This document shows positions 4,734-30,430 of a stretch of DNA of 64,000 bases, piece after piece. Below the pieces are notes generated by a model. It did not search any database and was not told where the DNA came from. It was given only the letters and a program-made list of their open reading frames with translations. A program made the translations under genes and the position numbers. This DNA comes from Halieaceae bacterium (GTDB lineage: Bacteria > Pseudomonadota > Gammaproteobacteria > Pseudomonadales > Halieaceae): contig JBELJN010000006.1 in the NCBI GenBank assembly GCA_042090345.1, positions 11,923-75,922 on the forward strand. The letters run 5' to 3'. The stretch's first letter is position 1, and each line of letters opens with the position of its first letter.

Positions 4734-5162
4734 ATGTTTGGTCAATTACTGTTGGGTGTTACAGGCGCCATTTTCTTCGGTTTAGGTGTCATTAGCGTTT
4801 ATAACCCAGAAATTCCTGCTGGTTGGTCGGGTTTATTTATTGCCTCGCAAGACGCCTACGCGGAAATAGCCGCCATGTATGGCGGTATGGAGATTGCCGT
4901 CGGCTCCATCTTGCTTGCTTCGGCCGTTATCAAAGAATATTTGAAGGCCGGCCTGTGGCTATTGTTTATCATTATCTTTTACATTGGCGCCGCAAGAGCC
5001 TTCACCGTAATCCGAGAGCTCGACTCGACGGTAGAGGTTGCAGGCAGCCAAGTCGGCATTGAGATGACGTCTAGCTTCACCAGCTATACGTGGGGTGTTC
5101 TAACCTTTGAGATCGTGGTCGCCATTTTGGCACTCATCGCACTTCTCAACCGCCCGCGCTAG
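4734..5162 (+). CDS. Small four-TM membrane protein, DUF4345-like
   Basis: ATG 4734 is preceded by GGGAGG. The product MFGQLLLGVTGAIFFGLGV... is hydrophobic with four predicted helices. The family assignment is from memory only. Confidence 0.6.
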   Translation: MFGQLLLGVTGAIFFGLGVISVYNPEIPAGWSGLFIASQDAYAEIAAMYGGMEIAVGSILLASAVIKEYLKAGLWLLFIIIFYIGAARAFTVIRELDSTVEVAGSQVGIEMTSSFTSYTWGVLTFEIVVAILALIALLNRPR

Positions 5163-5198
5163 CCACTCACCATATACAAGGCGGCAGCGCGGTGTTGG

Positions 5199-6683
5199 TT
5201 ATGCCAGCGCTGCGTACTCTTTCTCGAGTCGCTTTGCGGCCTTCTTAGACACGCCACCCAAAACGCTGATGGCGTTTCTCAGGCGCGCGCGCGTAAGATC
5301 AGGTCCAAGAATCGACATTGAGTCGGGGATCGAGTAGGCGCTCGACTTGCCCGAAATTGCGACGAAGAGAGGTGCGAACAAAACCTTTGGCTTTAATTCC
5401 AACGTGTCCGCCAAGCCTTTGAGCGTTACAAACAAAGCCCCGCGCTCCCAATCCTGCTGTGCCTCTAGTCGCCACAACACGAACTGCAAACGCTTAAGCA
5501 GCTCCTCCTGTGAATCCGCCGTGCCATCGAAGGCGTCAGCGGTCACCGCAACCTCACCCGACAGTAAATAAGCCGACATCGGGATAAAGTCAGACATGAC
5601 ATCCATGCGGCCCTGCGCGTGCGGCAAGATCTTATCTAAGGTCTCATCGTTCCAGAGCCAGGACTTTAAACGCGCCTTTAACGTCTGAGCGTCGAAGTCT
5701 TCCCGTAGCCAAGTACCGTTAAGCCACTTGAGCTTTTCAACGTCAAAAATAGGGCCTCCGAGCGATACACGATCAATATCGAACGCTGCCTGCATTTCGT
5801 CGAGCGAGAATTTTTCGCGCTCGTCGGGCATAGACCATCCCATACGACCCAAGTAGTTAACCAGTGCCTCTGGCAAGAAGCCCATGCGCTCGTAATGAAG
5901 AATGCTAGTCGGGTTCTTGCGCTTACTTAACTTTGACTTGTCAGGGTTTCTGAGCAACGGCAGGTGACAAAGCTCAGGCATATCCCAGCCAAAGTAGTGA
6001 TAGAGCAACTTGTGTTTTGGCGCTGAGTTCAACCACTCCTCGCCACGAATCACGTGGGTGATGCCCATCAGGTGATCGTCCACAACATTAGCAAGGTGGT
6101 AGGTCGGCATACCATCTGACTTTAGAAGGATCTGTGCATCGACCATGCTCCAGTCGAGCTCGATATCGCCACGAAGGCGGTCGTGAATCAGACACGCCCC
6201 TTCCTCATCTGGCACACGCATGCGAATAACAAACGACGCACCTGCGGCCTTTCGTGCCATCTGCTCGGCGTCACTCAACTCCAGATCCGCGGGCTTCAAG
6301 GCCGTTGATCGGCCGTCAGCACGACGGGCTTCACGCAATGTTTCAAGCTCCTCGGGCGTTCGATAGCAAACGAAGGCATCACCCTGCTCTACCAGTTGCC
6401 AAGCGTATTCGCCATAAATATCGCGCCGCTCACTCTGACGATACGGTCCATGATCACCGCCAACGTCGGGCCCTTCGTCCCAGTCGAGCCCTAGCCACCG
6501 GAGCGAGTCAAAAATCATCTGCTCGGCAGCCACGGTGCTGCGAGCCTGATCCGTGTCCTCGATGCGCAAAATAAACTGCCCACCGTGTGCTTTTGCAAAG
6601 CACCGGTTAAATAAGGCCATGTAAGCTGTGCCTACGTGGGGGTCGCCGGTAGGAGATGGGGCAACGCGCGTTCTGACGGTCAT
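5199..6683 (-). CDS. gltX: Glutamyl-tRNA synthetase
   Basis: N-terminus [21 protein letters not shown] carries a class I HIGH-type motif. A KLSKRK (KMSKS) motif is present and the length is 494 aa. Confidence 0.95.
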
Positions 6684-6849
6684 GTGAATCTCTTTTCGAT
6701 GAAGGGCTTTTGTAAGCGCGCAATGTTAACAGAAGCGGGTCCGAATAAAGCTGTCTATCACCGCTTCCCAATACACTTATTGCGTGAGTTTATTACACGC
6801 CCGAGTCAAAATTCGATAGGATGTGCCAAACCCAAGAGCAAGAAGAATC

Positions 6850-8490
6850 ATGCGTTGTTTTCGATCATTTTTAGCCGTCAGCTGCCTCGCGCTGCTGGCT
6901 GGGTGTGGTAGTGGTGAGAGTAATGTGGAGTCCGGAAATCGAGAGGGGCTTCTCCATTATGGAAATGGTGCAGAACCGCAGGGTCTTGATCCCCATGTGG
7001 TGACAGGGGTTCCCGAAAACCATCTTATTCGCGCACTTTTTGAAGGCCTCGCGGTAAAAAACCCGAAGACGCTAGAGCCAGAGCCCGGTGTTGCCGAGCG
7101 CTGGGAAATCAGTGATGACGGCACGGTTTACACGTTCTATATCAATCCAGATGCCAAGTGGAGCAACGGAGAGTCCATCACCGCCTCCGATTATGTTTGG
7201 TCGTGGCATCGTGCGCTGCACCCGGATACGGGCTCGCTATACGCTTACATGCTCTACCCCATTGCTAATTCAGAGGCCTACTCGAAACGGGAGATCACTG
7301 ACTTCAATGAGGTTGGCGTCAAAGCATTAGATGACCTCACACTGCAAGTGACATTAAACGCTCCGACGCCGTATTTTTTGCAGCTCATGGATCACTACAG
7401 TAGCTTTGCGGTGCACCCCGAGACCTTACTGCAACATGGGAAGATGACAGATCGATTTACCCCATGGACGCGGGTTGGAAACATTGTGAGCAATGGCGCC
7501 TTCACCTTGGAAGAATGGTCGCTTAACCGACGCATTATCATGAAGAAAAACGATCACTATTGGGATCGTGACAATGTTGCGCTCAATGGTGTGGTGTTCT
7601 ACCCAACCGAAAACGTGGTGAGTGAAGAGCGCATGTTCCGCGCCGAGCAGTTGCACTACACCCAAGTCGTACCCCTGGACAAAGTTCCAGGCTACCGCGA
7701 GAGCGGGAACCCAAGTTACGTTCAAGCGCCTTATTTAGGTACCTACTACTACCTCGTAAACACTGAGCGACCACCAGTGGACAACGTTTTAGTCCGCCGC
7801 GCCCTGTCGCTTGCTTTGGATCGCGATACGCTGACACGGACCGTACTACAAGACACTGCCATTCCAGCCTTCAGCATCACGCCGCCCGATACGCTTGGCT
7901 ACAATCCGCCAAAACTGTTTGCTCATGACCCCGAAAAGGCGCGTCAATTACTCGCGGACGCGGGCTACCCCAATGGCGAGGGTTGGCCGGGCCTTGAGAT
8001 CATCTACAACACCCAGGAAGCGCACCGTAAAATCGCAGTCGCCGTGCAGCAAATGTGGAAGCGCGAGCTAAACATCGACATTACGATCGCGAACCAAGAG
8101 TGGAAGGTGTATCTCGACTCTGTGTCCCAACGAAATTTCCAGGTGGCGCGTCGAGGTTGGATTGGCGATTACGTGGACGCTAACAACTTCCTTGACCTCT
8201 TCATAACGGACGGCGGGAATAACAATACGGGCTATGCCAACGAAGTCTACGACGACATTATTTTAAATCGCGCACCGAAAGCCAAAAGTCGAGATGAGCG
8301 ATATGGGTTGTTCTATGAAGCTGAGACTATGCTGATGCAGGAAATGCCTATCATCCCAATTTACACCTACACAAGTAAGCACTTAGTGCACCCAAGCGTA
8401 GAAGGTATTTACCCCAACCTAATGGACTCATTGAACCTTAAATACGTGACGTTGCATCCCGAACGTCGCTTAAACGGAAAAGCTAACTGA
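6850..8490 (+). CDS. Peptide ABC transporter substrate-binding lipoprotein (family 5, OppA/YejA-like)
   Basis: Lipoprotein signal MRCFRSFLAVSCLALLAGC. The body matches SBP family 5 in size (about 545 aa). It is the first gene of a four-gene ABC operon. Confidence 0.85.
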   Translation: MRCFRSFLAVSCLALLAGCGSGESNVESGNREGLLHYGNGAEPQGLDPHVVTGVPENHLIRALFEGLAVKNPKTLEPEPGVAERWEISDDGTVYTFYINPDAKWSNGESITASDYVWSWHRALHPDTGSLYAYMLYPIANSEAYSKREITDFNEVGVKALDDLTLQVTLNAPTPYFLQLMDHYSSFAVHPETLLQHGKMTDRFTPWTRVGNIVSNGAFTLEEWSLNRRIIMKKNDHYWDRDNVALNGVVFYPTENVVSEERMFRAEQLHYTQVVPLDKVPGYRESGNPSYVQAPYLGTYYYLVNTERPPVDNVLVRRALSLALDRDTLTRTVLQDTAIPAFSITPPDTLGYNPPKLFAHDPEKARQLLADAGYPNGEGWPGLEIIYNTQEAHRKIAVAVQQMWKRELNIDITIANQEWKVYLDSVSQRNFQVARRGWIGDYVDANNFLDLFITDGGNNNTGYANEVYDDIILNRAPKAKSRDERYGLFYEAETMLMQEMPIIPIYTYTSKHLVHPSVEGIYPNLMDSLNLKYVTLHPERRLNGKAN

Positions 8491-8491
8491 G

Positions 8492-9427
8492 ATGCTGCGC
8501 TTTATTTTCTGGCGGCTAATCCAAGCGATTCCCGTTATTTTTGTCGTTATCACGGCCACGTTTTTCTTGGTGCGCTCTGCGCCAGGTGGGCCCTTTGACA
8601 GTGAGAAAGCGGTTCTACCCGAGGTCAAACGCGCGCTGGAGGCCCAATACAAACTGGATCTCCCACTGCATGAACAATACTTTGCCTACCTTAGCGACTT
8701 AGGTAATGGCGACCTGGGACCTTCTTTTAAATACCCAGGGCGCAGCGTCAATGAAATTCTTAGCAGTGGTCTTCCGGTAACCGCTGAATTGGGTTTATAC
8801 GCGCTAAGCTTCGCGCTCCTTATTGGCGTTTTCGCAGGTGTATTTGCCGCACTGAAACCCAACACGCGGCAGGACTATATTCCAATGGGGCTGGCGATGA
8901 TTGGAATCTGTATGCCCTCTTTTCTCCTGGGTCCACTGCTGGTGCTCATTTTCGGTATCTACCTCGATTGGCTGCCGATTGCCGGATGGGGCGACCTTCC
9001 GGGCGATAAAATATTACCCTCAATCACGCTGGGTTCGGCCTATGCCGCGTATATCGCAAGACTTAGCCGGGCCGGCATGCTCGAAATTTTGTCGCAAGAC
9101 TACATTCGCACGGCACGAGCCAAAGGCTTGCCCGAATGGCGTGTCGTCACACAACACGCCTTGCGTGGCGGATTGATACCCGTGATTGCGTTCCTTGGTC
9201 CCGCCTTCGCGGGCCTACTCGCCGGCTCATTCGTTGTCGAGACGATCTTCCAAATACCCGGTTTGGGACGCTTCTACGTCCAGGCCGCCTTCAACCGCGA
9301 CTACACGATGATCTTGGGAACTACGGTGTTCTTGTCGACACTCATCGTATTCTTCAACCTGATCAGTGACGTCATCGCAGCGTGGCTCAATCCGCGTCTC
9401 CGCGCGCAGTTCAAAGGAGCCGCCTAA
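8492..9427 (+). CDS. Peptide ABC transporter permease (OppB/YejB-like)
   Basis: Six-TM BPD-type permease. It starts 1 nt after the binding-protein stop. Typical sequences MLRFIFWRLIQAIPV and the EAA-loop region YIRTARAKGL are present. Confidence 0.9.
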   Translation: MLRFIFWRLIQAIPVIFVVITATFFLVRSAPGGPFDSEKAVLPEVKRALEAQYKLDLPLHEQYFAYLSDLGNGDLGPSFKYPGRSVNEILSSGLPVTAELGLYALSFALLIGVFAGVFAALKPNTRQDYIPMGLAMIGICMPSFLLGPLLVLIFGIYLDWLPIAGWGDLPGDKILPSITLGSAYAAYIARLSRAGMLEILSQDYIRTARAKGLPEWRVVTQHALRGGLIPVIAFLGPAFAGLLAGSFVVETIFQIPGLGRFYVQAAFNRDYTMILGTTVFLSTLIVFFNLISDVIAAWLNPRLRAQFKGAA

Positions 9428-10314
9428 TGAATACAGAGCAAATCGACTATCTTGCCGAGGCCGAGGATGGCTCATCTCTCTGGCAAGACGCCTGGCTGAG
9501 ACTGAAGAAAAATAGAGCGGCCGTCGCTGGCGGCATTGTATTGATCACCATGGTGCTTCTCGCTTTGCTTACCCCCTTGATTGCGCCCTATGGTTACGAG
9601 GCACAAAACCTCGATTTGGGCGCATCGCCGCCCTCGGCCGCACACTGGTTAGGCACTGATATTTTCGGAAGAGATCTACTGACCCAGATTCTGTATGGCG
9701 GGCGTATCTCTCTGGCAGTGGGTTTCATAGCAACCGCTGTGGCCCTCGTCATTGGTGTGACTTGGGGCGCTGTTGCTGGCTACATTGGAGGGCGCATCGA
9801 TGCAGCGATGATGCGATTTGTGGATATTTTATACGCCCTACCCTTCATGATTTTCATCATTTTGCTGATGGTGGTGTTTGGCAGAAATATTCTCTTGTTG
9901 TTCCTGGCAATTGGCGCGGTTGAATGGTTAACCATGGCTCGAATCATGCGGACGCAAGTACAAGCCCTTCGCCAGCAGGAATTTGTTGAAGCCGCTATTT
10001 CGCTTGGACTCTCGCCAAGATCGATCATTTTCAAGCACATTGTCCCCAACGCAATCGGACCCATTATTGTTTACACCACACTGACCATCCCAAGCGTCAT
10101 GTTGCTGGAGGCCTTCTTGAGCTTCCTAGGCTTAGGTATCCAGCCACCACAAACTAGCTGGGGACTGCTTATCAGCTATGGGGCAGAGACGATGGAAGAG
10201 TACCCGTGGCTCCTTATCTTCCCGGGACTTGCACTCACCGTAACCTTATTCTCACTTAACTTCCTCGGCGATGGTTTGCGCGACGCGCTCGACGTTCGCG
10301 GCTCTAAGGATTAA
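9427..10314 (+). CDS. Peptide ABC transporter permease (OppC/YejE-like)
   Basis: ATG 9427 overlaps the upstream stop (TAATG). The protein has an OppC-type N-terminus and a permease core (FVEAAISLGLSPRSIIFKHIVPN). Confidence 0.9.
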   Translation: MNTEQIDYLAEAEDGSSLWQDAWLRLKKNRAAVAGGIVLITMVLLALLTPLIAPYGYEAQNLDLGASPPSAAHWLGTDIFGRDLLTQILYGGRISLAVGFIATAVALVIGVTWGAVAGYIGGRIDAAMMRFVDILYALPFMIFIILLMVVFGRNILLLFLAIGAVEWLTMARIMRTQVQALRQQEFVEAAISLGLSPRSIIFKHIVPNAIGPIIVYTTLTIPSVMLLEAFLSFLGLGIQPPQTSWGLLISYGAETMEEYPWLLIFPGLALTVTLFSLNFLGDGLRDALDVRGSKD

Positions 10315-10318
10315 ACGC

Positions 10319-11905
10319 ATGAGTCTATTAACCGTTAATGATTTAAGCGTCTGCTTTGTCACGCGAAATGGAACGACAAAGGCCGTCCAGAACATCAGCT
10401 TTTCGGTAGAGCCGAAATCCATTACCGCCATTATTGGCGAGAGTGGCTCGGGTAAATCCGTTTCGTGCTACGCCCTGCTCGGACTCATTCCACAACCGCC
10501 AGGTCGTGTCGATTCGGGTAGCGCGCACTTCGAAGGCAGAGATCTGCTGGCGCTCTCAGAACGTGAGTTAAGGGGCGTACGCGGCTCCGACATTGCCATG
10601 ATCTTCCAAGACCCTATGACATGTTTGAATCCTTACATGCGCATTGGTGAGCAATTAATAGAGCCCTTATTAGTGCACGGTGTCGCCGATAAAGAGACGG
10701 CCACAGCTCGTGCTGTCGCCCTGCTTGATGAGGTCGGTATACGAAACCCTGCGTCGGCGATGAATGCCTACCCCTTTGAGTTTTCAGGTGGTATGCGCCA
10801 GCGAGTTATGATTGCGATGGCACTGATTACCGAGCCAAAACTGCTGATAGCGGACGAGCCCACAACGGCGCTTGACGTCACCATTCAGGCACAGATTCTT
10901 CGACTCATTAAGTCACTTCAAGAGAAGCGTGATATTGGCGTGCTGTTCATCAGTCACGACCTTGCCGTGGTTTCCGATATTGCCGATCAGATTGTGGTGA
11001 TGGAGAAGGGGCATGTGGTTGAACAAGGATCGCCCACCGACATTTTTTCGGGCGCACAGCACCCGTACACACAAAAGCTTCTTGCCGCCATTCCAAGTGG
11101 CGAGGCACCGCCCGCAGACGCATCACGCACACCATTTATAACAGCGAGTAACCTCAAGACTTACTTCACAAGCGAGAACAGTGATGAGCCCGTCAAAGCC
11201 GTTGATGATGTTTCGCTGACGATTAACCGTGGTGAGGTTTTGGGACTCGTAGGCGAATCCGGCAGTGGGAAATCGACGTTTGGACGCTCTCTTCTTCGCC
11301 TAACCCCCATTACCTCAGGCAACATAGCATTCGATGGCGTAAACGTGGGGGAGCTGGACCGTGGAAGCTTGAAAACCCTGCGTCGTCGGATGCAGATGAT
11401 ATTCCAGGATCCCTACGCCTCCCTGAATCCGCGAATGACGGTATACGACACGCTGGCTGAGCCACTCTTACTCCATAAGATCGTCGACCGCTCGAACCTC
11501 GATGCGGCGATCAAGTCGCTTATGGATAACGTGGGGCTATCGCGTGCTTTTGCCAAGAAATACCCGCATGAGTTTTCGGGGGGACAGCGACAGCGCATTG
11601 CGATTGGTCGGGCTTTGGCCACCAAACCTGAATTCATTGTCGCCGACGAGCCGGTTTCGGCACTCGACGTGACCATTCAAGCCCAGATTCTCGATCTACT
11701 GAAAGACCTCAAAGACGAGTACGGACTGACCATGTTGTTTGTCTCTCATGACCTGGCCGTTATTCGACAAATTGCCGATCGCGTTGCTGTTCTGTATCAC
11801 GGGAAGCTTGAGGAAGTTGGCGAGACCGCATCGGTATTTAATACTCCTACCAGCGACTACACAAAGCGCCTCTTAGCCGCTATTCCTGGGAAAACGGCTG
11901 CCTAG
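10319..11905 (+). CDS. Fused double ATPase of the peptide ABC transporter (YejF-like)
   Basis: Two complete ABC cassettes are present. Walker A appears as GESGSGKS twice, the signature as FSGGMRQR and FSGGQRQR, and Walker B as [12 protein letters not shown] and [12 protein letters not shown]. Confidence 0.9.
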
Positions 11906-22227: not shown

Positions 22228-24270
22228 TTGATGCGAGAGCTTATCAGTATGATTGACCGTGGCAACCACGATTGGCGACTTATGTCGCGCCCGACTTTAA
22301 CTTTTGTGGACGGGACGCCCAGATCAGTCGACTTTGACGATGACTACTACTCGCCAACGAACGGACTCGCCGAGAGCAGCTACGTCTACATTGAAGGTGG
22401 CGAGATCGTTCCGCGCATAAAAGCGCTCAAGGCCGGTCAAACGTTAACGATTGCGGAATTGGGCGTGGGTACCGCCCTCAACCTCGCGCTACTCTTGCAG
22501 GCTTGGTCGCATTTTGCTCCGGCAGATGCGCACTGCCACTATATTGGCATCGAAAAGTATCCACTTCGCCGAGCGCAGCTGGCCCAAGTCAATGCACAAT
22601 GGGAGGCGCTCGGTGAAATCAACGAGGTCATCATGTCCCGTTGGCCGGCGCCGATTCCAGGCTGTCATCGCCGAAATTCGATACTGCCGGGTTTCTCTGT
22701 CGATTTTTGGTGGGGTGATGCAACCGACGTTCTAAGCGACCTCTTGGGTTATCAACAAACATGGATTGATGTGTGGTTTCTGGACGGGTTTTCGCCGGCA
22801 CGCAATGAATCAATGTGGGGTGAGGCTGTTATCGATCGACTGATTCCGCTTAGTAATCCTGAGGCAATTGTCACCACCTTCACTGCGGCAGGTCATGTCA
22901 GGCGCGCTTTGGAGCAAAACGGATTTTCCGTAACTAAACGCCGTGGTTTTGGGGGTAAGCGCGAGTGCATGACAGCCACTCGGTCAAGCCGCCCCCCTCT
23001 CAAGGCAGATCGTTTTGACACGGATTGGGACCAACCCAAACATTGCGCTTCACTGAAAAACTGCTTGGTTATCGGCGCCGGGCTTGCGGGATCTCATATC
23101 GCGAGGAAACTTGCGGAGGCCGGCTGCACGGTAACGGTTATAGAGCGCAATAGCCTGGCCTCTGGCGGGTCGAGTCAACCGCAAGGCGTGATCTATACCC
23201 GCCCCTCTCATAAGCACGGGAAGCTCGCAGATTTCTCTCTCGCCGCCTACTGTTTATCCACCGATCATCACCAGCAGTTATTCTCCCATCAGCAGCTTTG
23301 TGAGGGCGTCGACGGTGAGATGTCGGGATATATTCAATTGCGCGACGCTGACAAGCTTACTCTTTTGGCATCGGCCTTCGCCGATGAAGACAGTCCAGTG
23401 AAATTTGTAACGCCGGACGAGGCGAGCCGCATTGCCGGTATACCACTTGATCGCGGTGGTATGTATTTTCCGGATTCAGGCTGGTTGAACCCCGCAGGCG
23501 TTTGTCGATCACTAATCAATCACCCCAAAATTACGCTTGTAGAGGGCGTTGGCGCGGTAAAGCCGCGTCAGTTAGATTCGGGGCTGTGGGCTGCTGAGAA
23601 TCAGAAAGGGCAAACGATCGCGGTTGGGGATACGGTGATCCTTACGACAGCATGGCAGGCAACAGACAGTACCGAGTTGGACTTCTTGCCACTACAGCCT
23701 ATTCGGGGACAAACGACACAGCTGTCCTCAAACGGCTTATTGGCGAGGATGCGTTGCACTGTTTGTCATGATGGTTACACCCCGCCTGCTCGAAGCGGGG
23801 AGCATTGTATCGGCGCAACCTATGGGCTCAACGAGACGACCTTAGAAGAGCGTGCAGACGATCATCGCTTAAATCTGTCGCAACTGGCGTCGAATATACC
23901 CTCCCTCACAGGAGCCCTCAGCGAGACAGGAGCCCTCAGCGAGCAAAGGCTCAAGGGCATTGCCGCCGTTCGCTGCGCCACCAGTGACTATTTACCTATC
24001 GCCGGGCCCGTACCCGATAAAATTGCTTTTAATCGAACCTTTGAGGGTTTGCGTCACGATCGTAAGCGGCACATTGACGCCCAGCAACCCAACATCGAAG
24101 GGTTATGGGTCTTTACAGGGCTGGGCTCTCGAGGGCTCACTTCAGCACCTATTCTGTCAGAGATGTTAGTGTCGATGATGTTCCGGCGACCGCCCCCGCT
24201 ACCGCGCTACTTGATGCAAGCGGTTTCACCCGCGCGCTTTTTGAGGCGCAACTTGATAAAGGGCGAGTGA
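22228..24270 (+). CDS. mnmC: Bifunctional tRNA mnm5s2U34 methyltransferase / FAD-dependent cmnm5s2U34 oxidoreductase MnmC
   Basis: The N-terminal methyltransferase part has DFDDDYYS and WFLDGFSPARNESMW. The C-terminal DAO domain has VIGAGLAGSHIARKLAEAG. The start is uncertain; candidates are 22228, 22231, 22249 and 22282. Confidence 0.9.
   Translation: MMRELISMIDRGNHDWRLMSRPTLTFVDGTPRSVDFDDDYYSPTNGLAESSYVYIEGGEIVPRIKALKAGQTLTIAELGVGTALNLALLLQAWSHFAPADAHCHYIGIEKYPLRRAQLAQVNAQWEALGEINEVIMSRWPAPIPGCHRRNSILPGFSVDFWWGDATDVLSDLLGYQQTWIDVWFLDGFSPARNESMWGEAVIDRLIPLSNPEAIVTTFTAAGHVRRALEQNGFSVTKRRGFGGKRECMTATRSSRPPLKADRFDTDWDQPKHCASLKNCLVIGAGLAGSHIARKLAEAGCTVTVIERNSLASGGSSQPQGVIYTRPSHKHGKLADFSLAAYCLSTDHHQQLFSHQQLCEGVDGEMSGYIQLRDADKLTLLASAFADEDSPVKFVTPDEASRIAGIPLDRGGMYFPDSGWLNPAGVCRSLINHPKITLVEGVGAVKPRQLDSGLWAAENQKGQTIAVGDTVILTTAWQATDSTELDFLPLQPIRGQTTQLSSNGLLARMRCTVCHDGYTPPARSGEHCIGATYGLNETTLEERADDHRLNLSQLASNIPSLTGALSETGALSEQRLKGIAAVRCATSDYLPIAGPVPDKIAFNRTFEGLRHDRKRHIDAQQPNIEGLWVFTGLGSRGLTSAPILSEMLVSMMFRRPPPLPRYLMQAVSPARFLRRNLIKGE
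23908..23943 (+). repeat. Perfect 18-bp tandem duplication inside mnmC
   Basis: ACAGGAGCCCTCAGCGAG occurs at 23908-23925 and again at 23926-23943. It is in frame and gives TGALSE-TGALSE in the protein. Confidence 0.95.
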
Positions 24271-25046
24271 TGAAGCTAAAGATCCTCTCAATGCTCCTCA
24301 CTGTTTTGACGTTGAGTACTCAGGGTGTTCACGGTACGCCGGTATCGGAAGACATCACCGTCTTTGATATTTCTGTCGCGGAAAGACGGCCGTATGACCG
24401 AGGCACTTTTACTCAAGGCCTACTCATTACCTCCGAAACCCTGTGGGTGAGCTCTGGCCTCTACGGACAGTCCTTTGTTCAGCGTATGGATTGGCCAAGT
24501 GGAGAGAATAAGCGGCAATTGGACCTACCTGACAACCTCTTCGCAGAGGGAATCGCACACCATGAGGGTCATTTGTACACACTCACTTGGAAGTCACGAC
24601 AGATGCTCGCGCTAGATCCCGAGACACTCTCGGTAACAGCCACTCATAGGCTACCAGGAGAGGGCTGGGGCTTAACGAGCGATGGGACAAGTTTGTGGAT
24701 GTCGGATGGCACGTCGCGCATCCGCGAGTGGCGCGATGGTAAATTTCAGCGCACACTGACCGTGACCTTGAGGGGCAAACCGCTCTCTAGACTGAACGAA
24801 CTCGAGTGGATTGACGGCGAAATTTGGGCAAATATCTGGATGACCGATCAGATTGTAACAATTGCGCCCACCTCAGGCAGAATCACCCGTATCATAGACC
24901 TGACAAACCTACTCCCAAAGAGTGAACGGGCAAGAAACACCGATGTGTTAAACGGTATCGCACACGACCCCAAAGCAAATGCCACATGGGTAACCGGTAA
25001 ACGATGGCCGTACATGTACCGTATAGAATTGCTAGAGCGTAAATGA
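24270..25046 (+). CDS. Glutaminyl-peptide cyclotransferase (bacterial/plant beta-propeller type), secreted
   Basis: Signal peptide MKLKILSMLLTVLTLSTQGVHG. Motifs FTQGLL, FAEGIAHHEGHLYTLTWK, GEGWGLTSDG, LNELEWIDGEIWANIW and VLNGIAHD...WVTGKRWP match the glutamine cyclotransferase family. The ATG overlaps the mnmC stop (ATGA). Confidence 0.85.
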   Translation: MKLKILSMLLTVLTLSTQGVHGTPVSEDITVFDISVAERRPYDRGTFTQGLLITSETLWVSSGLYGQSFVQRMDWPSGENKRQLDLPDNLFAEGIAHHEGHLYTLTWKSRQMLALDPETLSVTATHRLPGEGWGLTSDGTSLWMSDGTSRIREWRDGKFQRTLTVTLRGKPLSRLNELEWIDGEIWANIWMTDQIVTIAPTSGRITRIIDLTNLLPKSERARNTDVLNGIAHDPKANATWVTGKRWPYMYRIELLERK

Positions 25047-25111: not shown

Positions 25112-28054
25112 ATGAACGCCGTTGTATCTCCGTCGACGCACCCCGCTTTTGAACTCATTCGAACTGTCCCTATTGAATCGCTGGGGCTAGACGTTCATGA
25201 ATATGTGCATCGCGCTACCGGTGCGCGGCATCTTCATATGGCCACCGATACCGACGAAAATGTCTTTATGGTGGCGTTGAAAACGGTCCCCGAAGACTCG
25301 ACCGGCGTTGCTCATATCCTCGAACATACGGTGCTTTGTGGCAGTGAAAAATACCCTGTTCGTGACCCCTTTTTCATGATGCTGCGCCGATCACTCAACA
25401 CGTTCATGAATGCCTTTACCAGCTCCGACTGGACTGCCTACCCTTTTGCGACGCAAAACCCCAAAGACTTCGATAATCTTTTATCGGTTTATCTCGATGC
25501 CGTCTTCTTCTCACGATTGGATCCGCTGGATTTTGCGCAGGAAGGCCATAGAGTCGAACTCGCCTCCGACGAGCCCGATGCACCGCTGGTTTTTAAGGGA
25601 GTGGTCTTCAACGAGATGAAGGGCGCTATGTCCTCGGTTTCATCAGTACTGTGGGATCGCCTTTGCTTTGAGCTTTTCCCAACAAATACCTATCACCACA
25701 ATAGTGGGGGTGACCCTGAAGCCATCCCTGATCTCAGCCATGACGAATTGATGGCGTTTTACAAAGGGCACTATCACCCCAGTAACGCGATCCTACTCAC
25801 CTTTGGCAATTTGCCGGTCGCACAACATCACGATGCCTTTGAAAGTCGAGCGCTACACCGATTCGAGAAATCAAAAGAAGTCATTGAGGTGCACCCTGAG
25901 CAATCGTTTGAGGCACCCAAGCGTGCGACGCATCGATATGCGTTGGATGACAGCGATGCCGCGGATAAAACGCACCTCATTATGGGCTGGAAATTGGGTG
26001 AGAGCTCGGACTTAGACGCCATGCTGGAGGCTCAACTCCTCTCCTCAGTCCTTATGGAAAACAGCGCATCACCACTTATGCAATGGCTGGAAACAAATGA
26101 CCTTGGGACGGCGCCGTCTCCACTTTGTGGCTTGGAAGAGTCGATGCGCGAAATGGTTCTTTGCTGCGGGATTGAAGGCAGCGAGGCAAATCGCGCTAAT
26201 CAATTCGAAGCAAGCGTACTCGACGTCATCCGAAAAACCGCACAAGAAGGGGTTTCTGAAGAACGACTTGATGCAATCCTGCACCAGATCGAACTGCATC
26301 AGCGAGAAGTCACTGGCGATGGAATGCCCTACGGGCTCAACCTCATGCTCCGTGCATTAGGTGCGGCAACACACAACGGTGATGCGGTGGCAGCGCTTGA
26401 TCTAAGCCCTGCGGTTGAGAAGCTACGCCAGAAGATGCGCGCTCCCAATTTCATTCAAAGTCGTCTAACTGACCTGCTGCTCGAAAACCCGCACCGCGTC
26501 ACACTTGTCGTCGCACCGGATGCCAATCTTGATCAAGAACGAAAGGATCGTGAGACATCCCGCCTTGCCACGATGCGAGCGTCACTCGATGAGGAGGCCA
26601 TCAATAACATTCGCAAACTCGCGACTGACCTAGAGGCCCGACAGAACCAGGTTGACGATGCCAGTATTTTGCCCAAAGTCGGCATTTCCGATATTCCTAA
26701 AGACTTATCAGCGCCAACGCTCGAGAGACGCCCGTTAAGTAGCGGGCAAACCCATTTTGTGGGAGCCAGCGGTACGAATGGGCTCGTTTATCAGCAAGTT
26801 GCCATGGATTTACCGGCACTCACCGAAGCGCAGCAGGGAAGGCTCCCGCTGCTTTGCGCACTCGCGACTGAAGTCGGTTTGGGTGGTTCCACCTACCTCG
26901 ATATCCAGGATCGGCAGTCCTCCACGGTCGGTAGTTTGAGTCTCAGCGTTTCAACTCGTGCCTCACGTGAAGACGTCAACGAGGCCTTTGGCTATCTCGT
27001 TACCGCCTCCAAAGCTCTGGCTAACCGAATACCTGATCAAGTCTCACTCATGATGGACACGCTTATGCGAGCCTCTTTTGATGAGACGGACCGTATAAAG
27101 GAGCTCATTAGTCAAATGCGCGCCCGTCGCGATCAAAGTATTTCAGGTGCAGGCCACAGCCTTGCCATGACGGCCGCAAGTGCGGGTATGAGTCCCCTTG
27201 CTAGCCTTTATCAGAGTCAAAGCGGTCTTGCGGGCATTGCAAGCCTTCGCGCGCTAGATAATGCCCTCTCTGACTCAACAGCACTTCACGATCTCAGCAC
27301 TGAACTTGCGGAACTCAGGGACCATTTATTGTCTTCTCCATCGTTCAATTTACTGACGGTGAGCGACTCACAGAGTCTAGATCAGGCCGCTCAAGCCCTC
27401 ATTGACGCGGTCGCACCCCTCGCAAATAGTGACAGAACATCGACTTGGACACCCGGTGAGAAGCAAGCCAGTACCAATCAGATTTGGGTCGCAAATACGC
27501 AAGTTAATTTCTGCGCAAAAGCATATCCCACAGTGTCAAGTGGACACCCCGATGCGCCTGCACTGACCGTCCTCGGCGCATACTTACGTAATGGCTTTTT
27601 GCATCGAGCCATTCGAGAACAAGGTGGAGCTTACGGCGGCGGTGCCAGCCACGATGCGAATGTTGGCGCATTCCGATTCTTCTCATATCGTGATCCAAGA
27701 AATATTGGCACCCTCGCGGACTTTGAAGCCTCGGTTGAGTGGTTACTGAGTTCGAAAGCAGATTCACATGCACTTGAGGAAGCTATCTTGAGTGTCGTTT
27801 CGAGCTTGGATAAACCGGCGTCCCCCGCGGGCGAGGTTAAAAAGGCGTTCTATGACACCTTGTACAAGCGAACTCTTGAGCAAAAGCGTGCGCTTCGTGA
27901 GGCGATCATTAATACCCGGCACGAAGATCTGTGCCGGGTTGCCGATACCTACCTAAAACCTGAGTTGGCATGCTCAGTTATTTTAACTGACGCCAAGTCC
28001 GCCGAAAGTGAGTCCCTAAGCAGTCTCGGCTGGCAGCATCATGATGTGAGCTGA
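25112..28054 (+). CDS. PreP-like M16C family zinc metalloprotease (presequence/peptide-degrading protease homologue)
   Basis: 980 aa. The inverted zinc motif HILEHTVLCGS (HxxEH) is followed by YPVRDPFFMMLRRSLNTFMNAFTSSDWTAYPF, which is typical of PreP/CYM1-type M16C enzymes. Confidence 0.85.
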   Translation: MNAVVSPSTHPAFELIRTVPIESLGLDVHEYVHRATGARHLHMATDTDENVFMVALKTVPEDSTGVAHILEHTVLCGSEKYPVRDPFFMMLRRSLNTFMNAFTSSDWTAYPFATQNPKDFDNLLSVYLDAVFFSRLDPLDFAQEGHRVELASDEPDAPLVFKGVVFNEMKGAMSSVSSVLWDRLCFELFPTNTYHHNSGGDPEAIPDLSHDELMAFYKGHYHPSNAILLTFGNLPVAQHHDAFESRALHRFEKSKEVIEVHPEQSFEAPKRATHRYALDDSDAADKTHLIMGWKLGESSDLDAMLEAQLLSSVLMENSASPLMQWLETNDLGTAPSPLCGLEESMREMVLCCGIEGSEANRANQFEASVLDVIRKTAQEGVSEERLDAILHQIELHQREVTGDGMPYGLNLMLRALGAATHNGDAVAALDLSPAVEKLRQKMRAPNFIQSRLTDLLLENPHRVTLVVAPDANLDQERKDRETSRLATMRASLDEEAINNIRKLATDLEARQNQVDDASILPKVGISDIPKDLSAPTLERRPLSSGQTHFVGASGTNGLVYQQVAMDLPALTEAQQGRLPLLCALATEVGLGGSTYLDIQDRQSSTVGSLSLSVSTRASREDVNEAFGYLVTASKALANRIPDQVSLMMDTLMRASFDETDRIKELISQMRARRDQSISGAGHSLAMTAASAGMSPLASLYQSQSGLAGIASLRALDNALSDSTALHDLSTELAELRDHLLSSPSFNLLTVSDSQSLDQAAQALIDAVAPLANSDRTSTWTPGEKQASTNQIWVANTQVNFCAKAYPTVSSGHPDAPALTVLGAYLRNGFLHRAIREQGGAYGGGASHDANVGAFRFFSYRDPRNIGTLADFEASVEWLLSSKADSHALEEAILSVVSSLDKPASPAGEVKKAFYDTLYKRTLEQKRALREAIINTRHEDLCRVADTYLKPELACSVILTDAKSAESESLSSLGWQHHDVS

Positions 28055-28055
28055 G

Positions 28056-28637
28056 TCAGGAGCCTTTGCCACTAACATAAAGAACAATGCCTGTAGGACC
28101 CTTGAGCCACAGGCGCGACCAGGTAGCGGGTCCAAGGTTCAGGTAACCCCTGGTCGGGTCGGCTAGTACCACTTTTGTGTCGCTCAACGATTGCACCACT
28201 GTAAAGTGGCCATTGCCGCCTAGATCAATCCAGGCCAGCAAAGGGTATTGAAGTCTTCGTAACTTAAGTAAGGTCACGCGTTCAGTGCTGAGCGAGACGC
28301 CATAGAAACGCGCTAAAGCCTGTAACTCACCGACTGAGTAACCGTCTCTGCTGCGTCGGTTAGCGCTGTTGTGATGCAATAAAGCGCCAGTTTGCTCCAA
28401 CTGCGCAAGTGAAACCGGTGATTCTGAAAAGTAAGTCAATAACATAGCGAGCGACGCCAGCCCACAATTCGTCGACGTCGATTGCCGGATCAAAGGCACG
28501 TCGATAGGCACTTCAAGGTTACCCAATTGAGCCTCCTTGGCTAAACGCGCCTGACTCGATGATGGCGACGCCATCACGCAAAGTGTACTTAGCGCAAAAG
28601 CAATTGAGGCGGTTATTCGCGCCTTCGACTCTTGCAC
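28056..28637 (-). CDS. Stand-alone C39 family (double-glycine type) cysteine peptidase, probably with its own signal peptide
   Basis: The core VPLIRQSTSTNCGLASLAMLLTYF ... YPLLAWIDLGGNGHFTVVQSLSDTKVVLADP parallels the CvaB/ComA peptidase domain (Gln-x5-Cys-Gly and His...Asp are present). GTG 28637 gives a K/R n-region, the hydrophobic core ITASIAFALSTLCVMA and SQA. Alternative starts are GTG 28688, ATG 28574 and TTG 28526. Confidence 0.75.
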   Translation of the reverse strand: MQESKARITASIAFALSTLCVMASPSSSQARLAKEAQLGNLEVPIDVPLIRQSTSTNCGLASLAMLLTYFSESPVSLAQLEQTGALLHHNSANRRSRDGYSVGELQALARFYGVSLSTERVTLLKLRRLQYPLLAWIDLGGNGHFTVVQSLSDTKVVLADPTRGYLNLGPATWSRLWLKGPTGIVLYVSGKGS

Positions 28638-28849
28638 CCGGCCAGACCAATATGAAATACAAAGAGCGCCAACATGGCACTCCCCCACGCAAGCGTATTA
28701 TTGGAATCTCTCTCGAGGCTTGTATACGTGATGGCAATAGCTACCCAGGTAACAAAGGGTCCAGAAATTTCGACAAAGAACAGCCGACGCGCTTTTACTT
28801 CGCTAAGGTACTCAGCTCGCATCCTTTGAAGTCGATCGCTAGCAGACAA
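28613..28849 (-). CDS. Small two-TM membrane protein (78 aa), unknown family
   Basis: TTG start with a perfect AAGGAGG Shine-Dalgarno 7 nt upstream (28857-28863 on the plus strand). There are two hydrophobic helices (LFFVEISGPFVTWVAIAITYTSL and AMLALFVFHIGLAG) and basic termini. The 3' end overlaps the peptidase ORF. Confidence 0.55.
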   Translation of the reverse strand: MSASDRLQRMRAEYLSEVKARRLFFVEISGPFVTWVAIAITYTSLERDSNNTLAWGSAMLALFVFHIGLAGCKSRRRE

Positions 28850-28895
28850 TATGACACCTCCTTAGAATTTAGGACTTCGTTTTAAGTCGCTAAGA

Positions 28896-28911
28896 GCCGC
28901 CCGAGGGCGGC
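28896..28911 (-). terminator. GC-only stem-loop between the 85-aa ORF and the downstream small ORF, a possible attenuating or stabilising hairpin
   Basis: GCCGCC-CUCG-GGCGGC is a 6-bp all-GC stem with a tetraloop. It lies 22 nt after the TAG of the 85-aa ORF and has only a weak U-tract (UCUU). Confidence 0.4.
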
Positions 28912-28932
28912 AAGATAATGGTTAAGGCTTCA

Positions 28933-29190
28933 CTAACCTCGTCGAGTCGAGGGTACGTAGACACCGTAAAAATAGGCCTGAAGAGCCAAATCAACTGCAA
29001 CCACGCCTAAAATAACGGGCCATACCTCGCCTCGGATTTCAGAAACATCGGTATCGAGCATGATCGATTTTGTTATCTCGCCTGGAAGCGAAAGGTTGTT
29101 ATTCACAAGCGCATCTGGGGGCGCTGCGACCGCGGACAATGACATCGTCATTGATATTGCGAGAACTGCTATCGTTTTTATTCGCTGCAT
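28933..29190 (-). CDS. Small exported protein (85 aa) with Sec-type signal peptide and C-terminal hydrophobic helix; candidate precursor or substrate
   Basis: The ATG is preceded by a perfect AAGGAGGG 5 nt upstream. The protein has signal MQRIKTIAVLAISMTMSLSAVAA, an acidic middle segment, then VWPVILGVVAVDLALQAYFYGVYV followed by PSTRRG. Confidence 0.65.
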   Translation of the reverse strand: MQRIKTIAVLAISMTMSLSAVAAPPDALVNNNLSLPGEITKSIMLDTDVSEIRGEVWPVILGVVAVDLALQAYFYGVYVPSTRRG

Positions 29191-29389
29191 TTCGACCCTC
29201 CTTGGTCATCCATAAACACACCCCGACTTGGGGGATAAAGAGGGTCTCAAAAACACAAAGTGAGGTAGAAGACTCCAAGCGCTCAAAACTCAACGATAGA
29301 TCTCGAGAAAGATCATGGTCGATCACTGCCTTCTCAGTATGGGGCGCACCGAGGGAATGCAGCTGACGTTAGGCTCGACAGAGACAGGC

Positions 29390-30295
29390 TTATTCAGCAA
29401 CCGCGAGCTTAAGCACCTGTGCGTAGCCGGTCACGTTGGTAAGCCCATCGAGACACCCCTTAGATCTTAACAGTGCCCGAAGCTTGGGTAGGTTGTAACA
29501 CGGCACGCCTGCCATAAAGTGATGCTCCATATGAAAGTTCACGTTATTTGGCGCTACCAAGAAGCGCTGCCAAAGAGGCGCCTCGACTGTTCGCGTATTC
29601 ATTCTCACGTCCGTATCGAGGGGATCGGGAACCACGGCGTGCTCGCCCACCTGACGAAGCCTTACCACCCACATGTAAGATGTCAAAAACACGCCCATCC
29701 ATATAAACCATGTCCATCCCACACCTAAAGCGAAGAGAATCGATGCAAAGACGAGATGCACGAACAGTTGCTTAGCCAATAAATTTTTCGTGCCCACCGT
29801 CTCCTTGCTCATTTGACTACCAGCACCGCTCGCCAATGTAATCAGTAACTTTAAGCCCGTTTGACCTGTTAGGTCGCGCCTCCATTTCCGATAAAGACTG
29901 CGTTTATTTATTGGGTACGCTTCATAATTTGGCAGATCAGGGTCCTCATGTGTGCCCGCGAAGCGATGATGTGAGGCGTGCCCTCTCGCGTAAGATTCAA
30001 GATCACCAAGCGTTGGAAGTGCGCAAAGCCACTGCCCCACCCAGGCGTTAAGCGATTTCGTCTTAAAGAGGCTGCCATGGCCCGCTTCATGCATTAATAC
30101 CGCAAGACTGAGTTGCCTTCCCGGGAGTACGATCCAGGCAAAAAGTAATGTAAAAATACTTGGAAAGTACCCCACGAGCATGAGGATGCCAAAAATGACT
30201 GTCCAAGCGCCCAAGACATGCATCCACGCCTTTACATCGCTTCGCTGCAAAAGCAATTCTCGCTCCTCTACTGATAGAACATTACTTGGCTTCAT
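29390..30295 (-). CDS. Membrane fatty-acid desaturase family protein
   Basis: Three histidine boxes are present: HEAGHGS, HASHHRF and HMEHHF. Several TM helices are predicted. ATG 30295 has GAGGAG just upstream. The track ORF extends to 30406. Confidence 0.8.
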   Translation of the reverse strand: MKPSNVLSVEERELLLQRSDVKAWMHVLGAWTVIFGILMLVGYFPSIFTLLFAWIVLPGRQLSLAVLMHEAGHGSLFKTKSLNAWVGQWLCALPTLGDLESYARGHASHHRFAGTHEDPDLPNYEAYPINKRSLYRKWRRDLTGQTGLKLLITLASGAGSQMSKETVGTKNLLAKQLFVHLVFASILFALGVGWTWFIWMGVFLTSYMWVVRLRQVGEHAVVPDPLDTDVRMNTRTVEAPLWQRFLVAPNNVNFHMEHHFMAGVPCYNLPKLRALLRSKGCLDGLTNVTGYAQVLKLAVAE

Positions 30296-30430
30296 TTGCT
30301 CCTCGTCTCTCTTTGAAGTGCTTTTTTTGAACTGCGCTTTTTGAAGTGCGCTTTTACTCACACCAGCAGACCTCAGTTGAGACCCCAGTATAAGCGATGT
30401 AGCCAAACGACCCAGCCTGATCTTCCACCC

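Follow-up and report, generated by a model that had tools for sequence, protein, structure and literature searches.

A stand-alone C39 peptidase and a putative Sec-exported precursor with a double-glycine-type leader in a conserved three-gene module of marine Halieaceae

A 64,000-nt stretch of DNA from a Halieaceae bacterium (contig JBELJN010000006.1; hereafter the window, to which all coordinates refer unless a related locus is named) carries three minus-strand genes at 28056–29190, encoding an 85-residue protein with a Sec signal, a 78-residue two-transmembrane (2-TM) protein and a stand-alone peptidase of the C39 family. From the sequences of these genes and their relatives we propose, as a reading with roughly an even chance of being correct, that the C39 peptidase cleaves the 85-residue protein in the periplasm next to Gly54, guided by a double-glycine-type leader, and that the product would be a conserved hydrophobic peptide, about 30 residues long, that works together with the 2-TM protein. 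In the following, P#### denotes database proteins and L### denotes related loci.

Results

Three coding genes between a desaturase and a PreP-like peptidase

The three genes fill the interval between a fatty-acid desaturase gene (29390–30406) and the convergent gene of a PreP-like protease (25112–28054, plus strand), with a single base (28055) separating the PreP and peptidase stop codons. This layout, which an initial annotation had read from the letters of the window, was confirmed. The 85-residue pre-pro-peptide is encoded at 28933–29190 (ATG start, AAGGAGG 6 nt upstream), the 78-residue 2-TM protein at 28613–28849 (TTG start, AAGGAGG at 28857–28863, 7 nt upstream) and the 193-residue C39 peptidase at 28056–28637 (GTG start, MQESKARITAS...). 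Orthologues of the 2-TM gene have ATG at the codon position of the TTG. The peptidase frame is open from 28688, and the GTG at 28637 was chosen as the most likely start because the gene calls on the closest homologues (P0001 and P0002) and the orthologues in L001 and L002 start there; this start overlaps the end of the 2-TM gene by 25 nt.

In comparison with the closest related locus (L020, dS of about 0.2), the ratio of nonsynonymous to synonymous substitution rates (dN/dS) was 0.03 for the 85-residue protein, 0.26 for the 2-TM protein, 0.27 for the C39 peptidase and 0.075 for PreP. Overall, the values were 0.03–0.09, about 0.2–0.26 and about 0.25 for the three module genes, respectively, and the proteins of relatives were 76–85% (85-residue protein), 46–53% (2-TM protein) and 53–59% (peptidase) identical. 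These results indicate that all three genes, including the two small ones, are coding and under purifying selection, and that the smallest is the most constrained. The 85-residue protein is identical to the "hypothetical protein" WP_279241692.1 of Candidatus Paraluminiphilus aquimaris JH123, a cultured Halieaceae strain.

The 85-residue protein has a double-glycine-type leader register behind a Sec signal

The 85-residue protein consists of a Sec signal (residues 1–23, 29122–29190), an acidic pro-region (residues 24–55, 29026–29121) that ends in the putative leader ...SIMLDTDVSEIRG54-E55, and a conserved hydrophobic core, VWPVILGVVAVDLALQAYFYGVYVPSTRRG (residues 56–85, 28936–29025), all encoded on the minus strand. 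A profile search of 1.84 billion representative proteins returned only 43 matches at E values up to 0.001 for this family. In Pfam and NCBIfam, searches with the protein and its relatives (about 32 sequences), as well as with the 78-residue protein, gave noise-level matches only and no family. These searches indicate that the 85-residue family is narrow and undescribed in Pfam and NCBIfam.

The members share a common architecture, in which a Sec-type signal is followed by a variable acidic stretch, a conserved block and a variable tail. All of them have a basic n-region, a hydrophobic h-region and an Ala-x-Ala-like site before the leader. The conserved block reads L(S/D)xxxMxxT(R)G-(E/Q/R/K)-(L/V)-W-P-...-D-...-G-x-Y-V-P; G54, D67, G76, Y78 and P80 are invariant in 32 family members, and P58 and V79 are nearly so. 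Three subfamilies were distinguished: the window type ends in ..STRRG, a second has an acidic tail and carries Lys or Arg behind the Gly, and the tail of the third is Gly-rich with a CxxC. Across the whole family the pro-region is variable except at the leader-like positions, and within the window subfamily a segment of it, PPDALINNxLSLPGExxKS, is nearly invariant.

The register of the leader was computed on 38 non-redundant sequences with the invariant Gly set to −2. Leu was found at −12 in 22 and Met at −7 in 23 of the 38 sequences, with Ser/Asp at −11, Glu/Ala/Asp at −8, Thr/Leu/Val/Ile at −4 and Arg at −3. The Gly at −2 was present in all 38, and the −1 residue was followed by Leu/Val, Trp and Pro, the Pro at +3 being kept in 37. 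The mean hydrophobicity summed over −4, −7 and −12 was +6.1 in this register and −1.9 and −5.7 when the register was shifted by one residue. The double-glycine leader pattern calls for an acidic residue at −8 and for hydrophobic ones at −4, −7 and −12, and it fitted only with the invariant Gly at −2. For ComA and LahT150, the recognition patterns Leu(−12)-x3-Glu(−8)-Leu(−7) and Val−4/Leu−7/Leu−12 have been described (PMC6363468).

The −1 residue was Glu in 18 sequences, Gln in 8, Arg in 6, Lys in 4, Asp in 1 and Gly in 1, so that a canonical Gly, Ala or Ser occurred at this position in a single member of the 38, P0227, the sole one with Gly-Gly. In this divergent protein, LIDEIEMQAIDGG precedes and IILLPW follows the cut position, placing Ile at −12, Glu at −8, Met at −7, Ile at −4 and Gly-Gly in the exact register, and its gene lies in the same arrangement. 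In none of the members did the leader stand at the extreme N-terminus without a Sec signal; the Sec signal precedes it in all of them.

Because the register fits and P0227 shows the canonical Gly-Gly within it, the 85-residue protein is read here as a Sec signal followed by a double-glycine-type leader. The initial annotation had seen a Sec signal instead of such a leader, which is not borne out, whereas the Gly at −2 and the hydrophobic residues at −4 and −7 that it had pointed out hold across the family. It had also noted the motif E-I-x-G in both small proteins. The four residues are literally present in both, but as a conserved motif they are confined to the 85-residue family, where they occupy leader positions −5 to −2. 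In the 78-residue protein they lie within the first hydrophobic helix, and in relatives the Glu is replaced by Arg and the Gly is lost; because the motif is not kept, its presence there is judged to be due to chance.

The peptidase is predicted to be a secreted, single-domain C39 enzyme

The peptidase matched Pfam Peptidase_C39 (PF03412) with 63.2 bits against a cut-off of 22 (E = 2.8e-17). Gln52, Cys58 (codon 28464–28466), His144 and Asp160 were invariant in 11 homologues, down to 42% identity, and the enzymes of L018 and L103, with 30% identity, have the same catalytic residues, in line with the initial assignment of a C39 peptidase with all four catalytic residues. In the AlphaFold model, the core had a predicted local distance difference test (pLDDT) score above 85, and the best fold match in the PDB was leader-bound LahT150 (6MPZ; target-normalised template modelling score 0.83, root-mean-square deviation 2.2 Å). 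Further matches were 5XE8, 3K8U and the peptidase domains of ComA and PCAT1, and a PDB profile search by sequence again placed 6mpz first (E = 5e-10). The predicted fold is that of papain-like double-glycine proteases.

The peptidase begins with a basic segment, followed by a hydrophobic stretch of 16 residues and an S-Q-A site, which together outline a signal of about residues 1–30 (cut between SSQA and RL). This N-terminus resembles a signal that is cleaved off and not a membrane anchor, because no 19-residue window of the peptidase reaches transmembrane hydrophobicity on the Kyte-Doolittle scale. Every homologue read begins in a signal-like manner, in many cases with a long linker of variable sequence behind it, in line with the signal peptide initially seen in this frame. 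These results indicate that the module encodes a genuine C39 double-glycine enzyme that is stand-alone, predicted to be secreted and apparently active. Since it has its own signal peptide, the enzyme would act outside the cytoplasm.

A peptidase-containing ATP-binding cassette transporter (PCAT) was rejected as an identity for this 193-residue single-domain protein, which has no transporter. Against the NCBIfam models of secreted C39 enzymes, it scored below the cut-offs for FapD (NF058616, equivalog; 37.4 bits versus 330) and FilB (NF050078; 25.4 bits versus 475). The peptidases of two sister subfamilies score best against FapD (51–57 bits) and FilB (36–48 bits), also below the cut-offs. Membership of FapD or FilB was rejected, the scores being far under these limits.

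Among the peptidase columns screened for charge co-variation with the substrate −1 residue, the best candidate was the third residue after the catalytic Asp, which is Arg163 in the window (ADPTRGY, codon 28149–28151). Where the invariant Gly of the substrate is followed by Glu or Gln, 19 of 21 peptidases have Arg here; where it is followed by Lys or Arg, 28 of 44 have Gln; and the lineage with a true Gly-Gly has Trp. The pattern may reflect co-variation of the S1 pocket, and it is regarded as a lead only because it is fully confounded with phylogeny.

The module is kept at one chromosomal site throughout marine Halieaceae

About 100 related loci including the window were collected, 80 of them from a metagenome scan and the rest from look-ups. 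All are from marine Halieaceae, the named sources being Luminiphilus, Paraluminiphilus and metagenome-assembled Halieaceae genomes. A peptidase-pattern scan of genome contigs gave 7 Luminiphilus/Halieaceae loci, its patterns being too specific to the window subfamily. In nearly every locus of sufficient length the gene order was small gene, 2-TM gene, C39 gene, convergent PreP gene and glutaminyl cyclase gene, and PreP was adjacent and convergent in every related locus extending far enough. The co-occurrence of the small genes with stand-alone C39 genes, raised by the initial annotation as a point for survey, was thus found, except that no 2-TM reading frame was picked up in L089 and L087. Together with the leader register held across the family, this co-occurrence supports the 85-residue protein as a candidate substrate, as first proposed.

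The module is single-copy and occupies one fixed chromosomal site, and the identity of its proteins falls in step with that of the flanks (PreP, 97% down to 56%). Because its divergence tracks that of the flanking housekeeping genes, the module is, on this comparison, old, vertically inherited within Halieaceae and part of the core genome rather than a mobile bacteriocin island. Upstream of the module the loci differ, having the desaturase directly, the desaturase and two further genes, or an outer-membrane barrel with or without a GspG-like lipoprotein. This variable side and the overlapping reading frames add only modest weight to the linkage of the three genes.

The conserved core and the 2-TM protein

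The AlphaFold model of the 85-residue protein contains helices at residues 2–21 and 46–83, with pLDDT values of 81–95 over residues 51–80. In the core, the small residues at positions 7, 10, 14, 17 and 21 after the cut share one helix face, and the other face carries the Asp, Gln/Ala/Ser and aromatic residues. Since the small residues line one face, the core sequence suggests helix-helix packing. In the window type, which ends in ..STRRG, the charges on either side of the segment obey the positive-inside rule and suit an anchor with its N-terminus out and its C-terminus in. Of the two products initially considered, the C-terminal hydrophobic peptide is likelier than the acidic N-terminal piece, because the core holds the family-wide conservation and the precursor is the most constrained of the three genes.

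The 78-residue protein has a charged N-terminal segment, two hydrophobic helices with a short loop, seen as two Kyte-Doolittle hydrophobic windows, and a basic C-terminus. Its relatives share an architecture in which L..KL...R.R.F..I..P...W leads into the first transmembrane helix, followed by a short loop, the second helix and a basic tail; their sequence identity is low, with zero invariant columns. Nothing in these sequences suggests catalysis by the 2-TM protein. A weak match of one relative to 8xMP (E = 0.033) could not be built on, as a literature search gave papers on other subjects. The 78-residue protein was found in ENA and Logan assemblies only and has no NCBI accession, and its 85-residue neighbor is annotated in RefSeq. 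The TTG-started gene is probably missing from the public Paraluminiphilus genome annotation, which is a practical annotation gap.

Discussion

Proposed route of maturation

The genes, the enzyme family, the leader register and the co-occurrence are observed; from these we infer the course of processing step by step, the topology and what the product does, as follows. The Sec pathway would export the 85-residue precursor, which would then lose its signal peptide. The rest would comprise an acidic pro-region of some 32 residues, with the double-glycine-type leader as its C-terminal half, and a 25-residue hydrophobic helix, which may lodge in or at the inner membrane. The soluble periplasmic C39 enzyme would dock on the leader helix in the manner of the PCAT and LahT peptidase domains, through the side chains at −4, −7 and −12, and would cut next to the invariant Gly54, most likely, judging from the register, after Glu55. 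The pro-piece would be freed, and a hydrophobic peptide of about 30 residues (VWP...GVYVPSTRRG) would be left, with an invariant Pro, a mid-helix Asp and a Gly-x-Tyr-x-Pro end. The 2-TM protein would be its inner-membrane partner, as a holder, an assembly factor or a protective factor.

A more specific version, in which we place appreciably less confidence, is a Sec-first route, in which the leader is lost in the periplasm to a free C39 enzyme with an S1 site changed for Glu/Gln or Arg/Lys, and the product is an ultra-conserved core-genome peptide of about 30 residues and not a weapon. The 2-TM partner may hold the hydrophobic product as a small subunit or a regulator, and in its ancestral form the product may have served a MetA-type outer-membrane barrel as cargo or ligand.

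Several observations weigh against cleavage of the 85-residue protein by the C39 enzyme or against the fate assigned to the product. Known C39 enzymes require Gly, Ala or Ser at −1, whereas this residue is Glu, Gln, Arg or Lys in 36 of the 38 putative substrates; either the S1 site differs or the cut is made elsewhere. In addition, co-occurrence cannot be separated from common descent, because all of the loci share the flanking genes. FapD, the closest functional precedent, has no assigned substrate, so adjacency is not proof. Residues 46–83 are modelled by AlphaFold as a continuous helix with no extended cleavage site. Finally, the hydrophobic segment is marginally transmembrane (Kyte-Doolittle value of about 1.8, with a central Asp), and the positive-inside charges are not obeyed in the subfamily with ..YYAEQEAPQ tails. 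Because the charges of this acidic-tail subfamily do not fit, retention of the peptide in the membrane is uncertain.

Competing explanations

Some of these observations would also be accounted for if the peptidase acted on another periplasmic or envelope protein, as FapD may, and the small ones were unrelated membrane proteins linked to it by gene order only. The presence of the same flanking genes at every locus allows linkage by descent, FapD's own substrate is unassigned (PMC5557850), and the −1 residue is not one accepted by known C39 enzymes. This explanation is nevertheless unlikely, since the −12/−8/−7/−4/Gly(−2) register, with one true Gly-Gly member, would be odd as a coincidence, and since the three genes, with overlapping or closely spaced reading frames, stay together while the upstream neighbors vary among lineages.

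A Sec-routed, class-II-like bacteriocin or toxin, in which the product is a pore-forming peptide and the 2-TM protein confers immunity, is slightly less probable still. The order of precursor, small membrane protein and C39 gene is that of class II bacteriocin loci, with which the immunity role first suggested for the 2-TM protein agrees, and the leader is of the double-glycine type. The core helix combines a stripe of small residues with a polar Asp, like oligomerising membrane peptides, and related loci encode an outer-membrane barrel as a possible exit for the peptide. However, the module is single-copy at a fixed site throughout a family-level clade and diverges with housekeeping genes (PreP, 56–97%), and the precursor is as constrained as PreP (dN/dS 0.03–0.09), which is the opposite of the patchy, fast-changing pattern of bacteriocins. 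An immunity role fits poorly with such a constrained, vertically inherited core-genome module, and no outer-membrane exporter was seen among the window reading frames scanned.

Improbable, too, is a surface fibre or export system of the Fap/Fil kind, in which the processed peptide would leave through an outer-membrane barrel and assemble outside. It draws on the best scores of the two sister-subfamily peptidases, which are against FapD and FilB, and on the subfamily C loci, where a barrel gene lies directly upstream of the precursor gene, in most of them together with a gene for a GspG-like lipoprotein. Against it, those scores fall far short of the limits of 330 (FapD) and 475 (FilB), neither the barrel nor the lipoprotein has a homologue in the window, and no fap-type families (FapA-C, FapE, FapF barrel) were found among the scanned window reading frames, the module's neighbors being the desaturase and PreP beside the 85- and 78-residue proteins themselves. 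Moreover, the product would be a single hydrophobic helix, not a Gln/Asn-rich repeat protein.

Release of the acidic N-terminal peptide as a periplasmic or extracellular signal, with the helix merely a membrane tether, is the least probable of these explanations. The near-invariance of its PPDALINNxLSLPGExxKS segment within the window subfamily speaks for it. Against it, the region varies family-wide except at the leader-like positions, and all invariant residues lie in the core, where a mere tether would need no invariant Asp, Gly, Tyr and Pro.

Comparison with known systems

The proposed maturation of the 85-residue protein by the C39 enzyme shares with the PCAT/AMS peptidase domains (LahT150, ComA and PCAT1; PF03412) the fold, the Gln/Cys/His/Asp residues and the leader register of the putative substrate. 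It differs from them in that the enzyme is unfused and has its own signal peptide, the substrate is Sec-exported, and the −1 residue is Glu, Gln, Arg or Lys instead of Gly, Ala or Ser. Precursors of class II bacteriocins and competence peptides likewise combine an amphipathic leader (Gly at −2, hydrophobic residues at −4, −7 and −12) with a core that is short and hydrophobic, and a small membrane protein is encoded beside them, whereas here a Sec signal stands before the leader, the −1 residue is charged or an amide, the locus is conserved in the core genome, and no leader-family model matches.

FapD is a Sec-exported, periplasmically active C39 peptidase that is required for Fap secretion and has no assigned substrate (PMC5557850). 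Because of this precedent, a free periplasmic C39 enzyme is not new in itself, contrary to what the initial annotation had implied, and NCBIfam already holds models for FapD, FilB and PA2778-type enzymes. The window enzyme resembles FapD of the Pseudomonas functional amyloid system in being a stand-alone C39 peptidase that is exported by Sec and, by prediction, acts in the periplasm on partners that Sec exports too, and FapD is the best NCBIfam match of sister subfamilies. It differs in its score (37–57 bits for this group versus 330), in the lack of FapA/B/C/E/F genes and in having a tiny precursor and a 2-TM protein as neighbors; unlike for FapD, a candidate substrate can be pointed to, one with a recognisable leader. 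FilB and PA2778-type enzymes (NF050078 and NF033920) are likewise secreted single-domain C39 proteins of Gram-negative bacteria, but the scores stay below the cut-offs (25–48 bits versus 475 and 150) and the gene context is unrelated. No description of a Sec-exported double-glycine-type precursor combined with a periplasmic C39 enzyme and a 2-TM partner was found in Pfam, NCBIfam or the literature searched.

Stand-alone periplasmic C39 peptidases are widely annotated and FapD is the only studied one, whereas here a candidate substrate lies two genes away. The cut site, its recognition and the tolerance of the C39 S1 site for charged residues thereby become directly testable. Experiments are feasible, since the cultured strain JH123 encodes the exact 85-residue protein. 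If the proposed cleavage takes place, leader-guided peptide maturation would not be tied to ATP-binding cassette (ABC) exporters, and a conserved small membrane peptide would join what is known of the OM60/NOR5 clade, an abundant group of coastal seawater.

Neighboring genes

The PreP-like protein is an M16C metallopeptidase without a signal peptide, as read from its N-terminus, and is a constant neighbor of the module, regarded as context and not as a proven component. Elsewhere, 6823–11905 (plus strand) encodes the sole ABC system of the window, a complete binding-protein-dependent peptide importer and not an exporter. It is made up of an SBP_bac_5 protein (6823–8490), two permeases and, at 10271–11905, a fused double ATPase that includes an oligo_HPY domain. 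No PCAT-type exporter, HlyD or TolC was found among the window reading frames scanned. The initial statement that the 64 kb hold no ABC, membrane fusion or TolC-type protein is therefore right as regards an exporter and wrong as regards the ABC importer.

A glutaminyl cyclase with a signal peptide is encoded beyond PreP at 24105–25046 (plus strand; Pfam Glu_cyclase_2, E = 2e-77) and is syntenic in every related locus. A cut directly after the Gly would expose an N-terminal Glu or Gln, a pyroglutamate substrate, in two subfamilies and Lys or Arg in the third. Formation of pyroglutamate by this cyclase was rejected, as it needs a cut right after the Gly, which breaks the canonical register, and fails in the Lys/Arg subfamily.

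In the CxxC-tail subfamily, a protein of 251–273 residues ending in ..QYQF is encoded directly upstream of the precursor on the same strand. Barrel genes were located in L014 (6168–6956), L016 (6140–6961), L100 (5206–5961), L101 (5142–5936) and L089 (about 5069–5899). Two of the five upstream barrel proteins match PF13557 Phenol_MetA_deg (E = 3.9e-7), and a PDB profile search with the barrel alignment gave no match. In most such loci the barrel gene adjoins a divergently oriented gene whose lipoprotein-like product carries a GspG (type II secretion pseudopilin) domain at its C-terminus; this gene lies on the minus strand in L014 (5317–6009), L016 (5335–5982) and L100 (4407–5054); L101 is without it. 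P0222 looks like a fusion of the barrel and the small protein.

Expression signals and RNA elements

A scan for sigma-70 promoters upstream of the 85-residue gene gave no convincing candidate, and an Rfam search of 27800–29700 gave no match. The 5' untranslated region of this gene contains a CCCC-loop-GGGG hairpin (29221–29234, minus strand), which a simple scan flagged as terminator-like; its stem is kept and its loop is variable in 7–8 diverged loci. Closer to the start, a 14-nt element, GACCAAGGAGGGTC (29194–29207, minus strand), includes the Shine-Dalgarno sequence. All 14 bases are invariant in 8 loci, where the surrounding intergenic DNA barely aligns. The GACC and GGTC ends of the element could pair.

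Just past the stop codon of the 85-residue gene lies a GC-rich hairpin, GCCGCC-CUCG-GGCGGC (28896–28911, minus strand), a possible attenuator or RNA-stabilising element. The window hairpin alone is not significant (−15 kcal/mol, z = −1.2), and L001, L002, L012 and L018 have stronger ones at this place, that of L001 with a 12 bp stem, a U5 run behind it and z = −3.5. A hairpin after the precursor gene is the usual layout where a precursor is made in excess over the products of its processing genes. This hairpin and the 14-nt element would suit a precursor expressed above its processing genes.

A palindromic, terminator-like hairpin with T-rich flanks was found by pattern scan only at 27960–27977, on both strands, about 80 nt past the peptidase stop codon and within the last 100 nt of the PreP coding region; it is a candidate for the end of the module transcript. 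The PreP and module transcripts probably overlap, because the two units are convergent without intergenic space. In L018, the PreP and peptidase coding regions themselves overlap by 47 nt.

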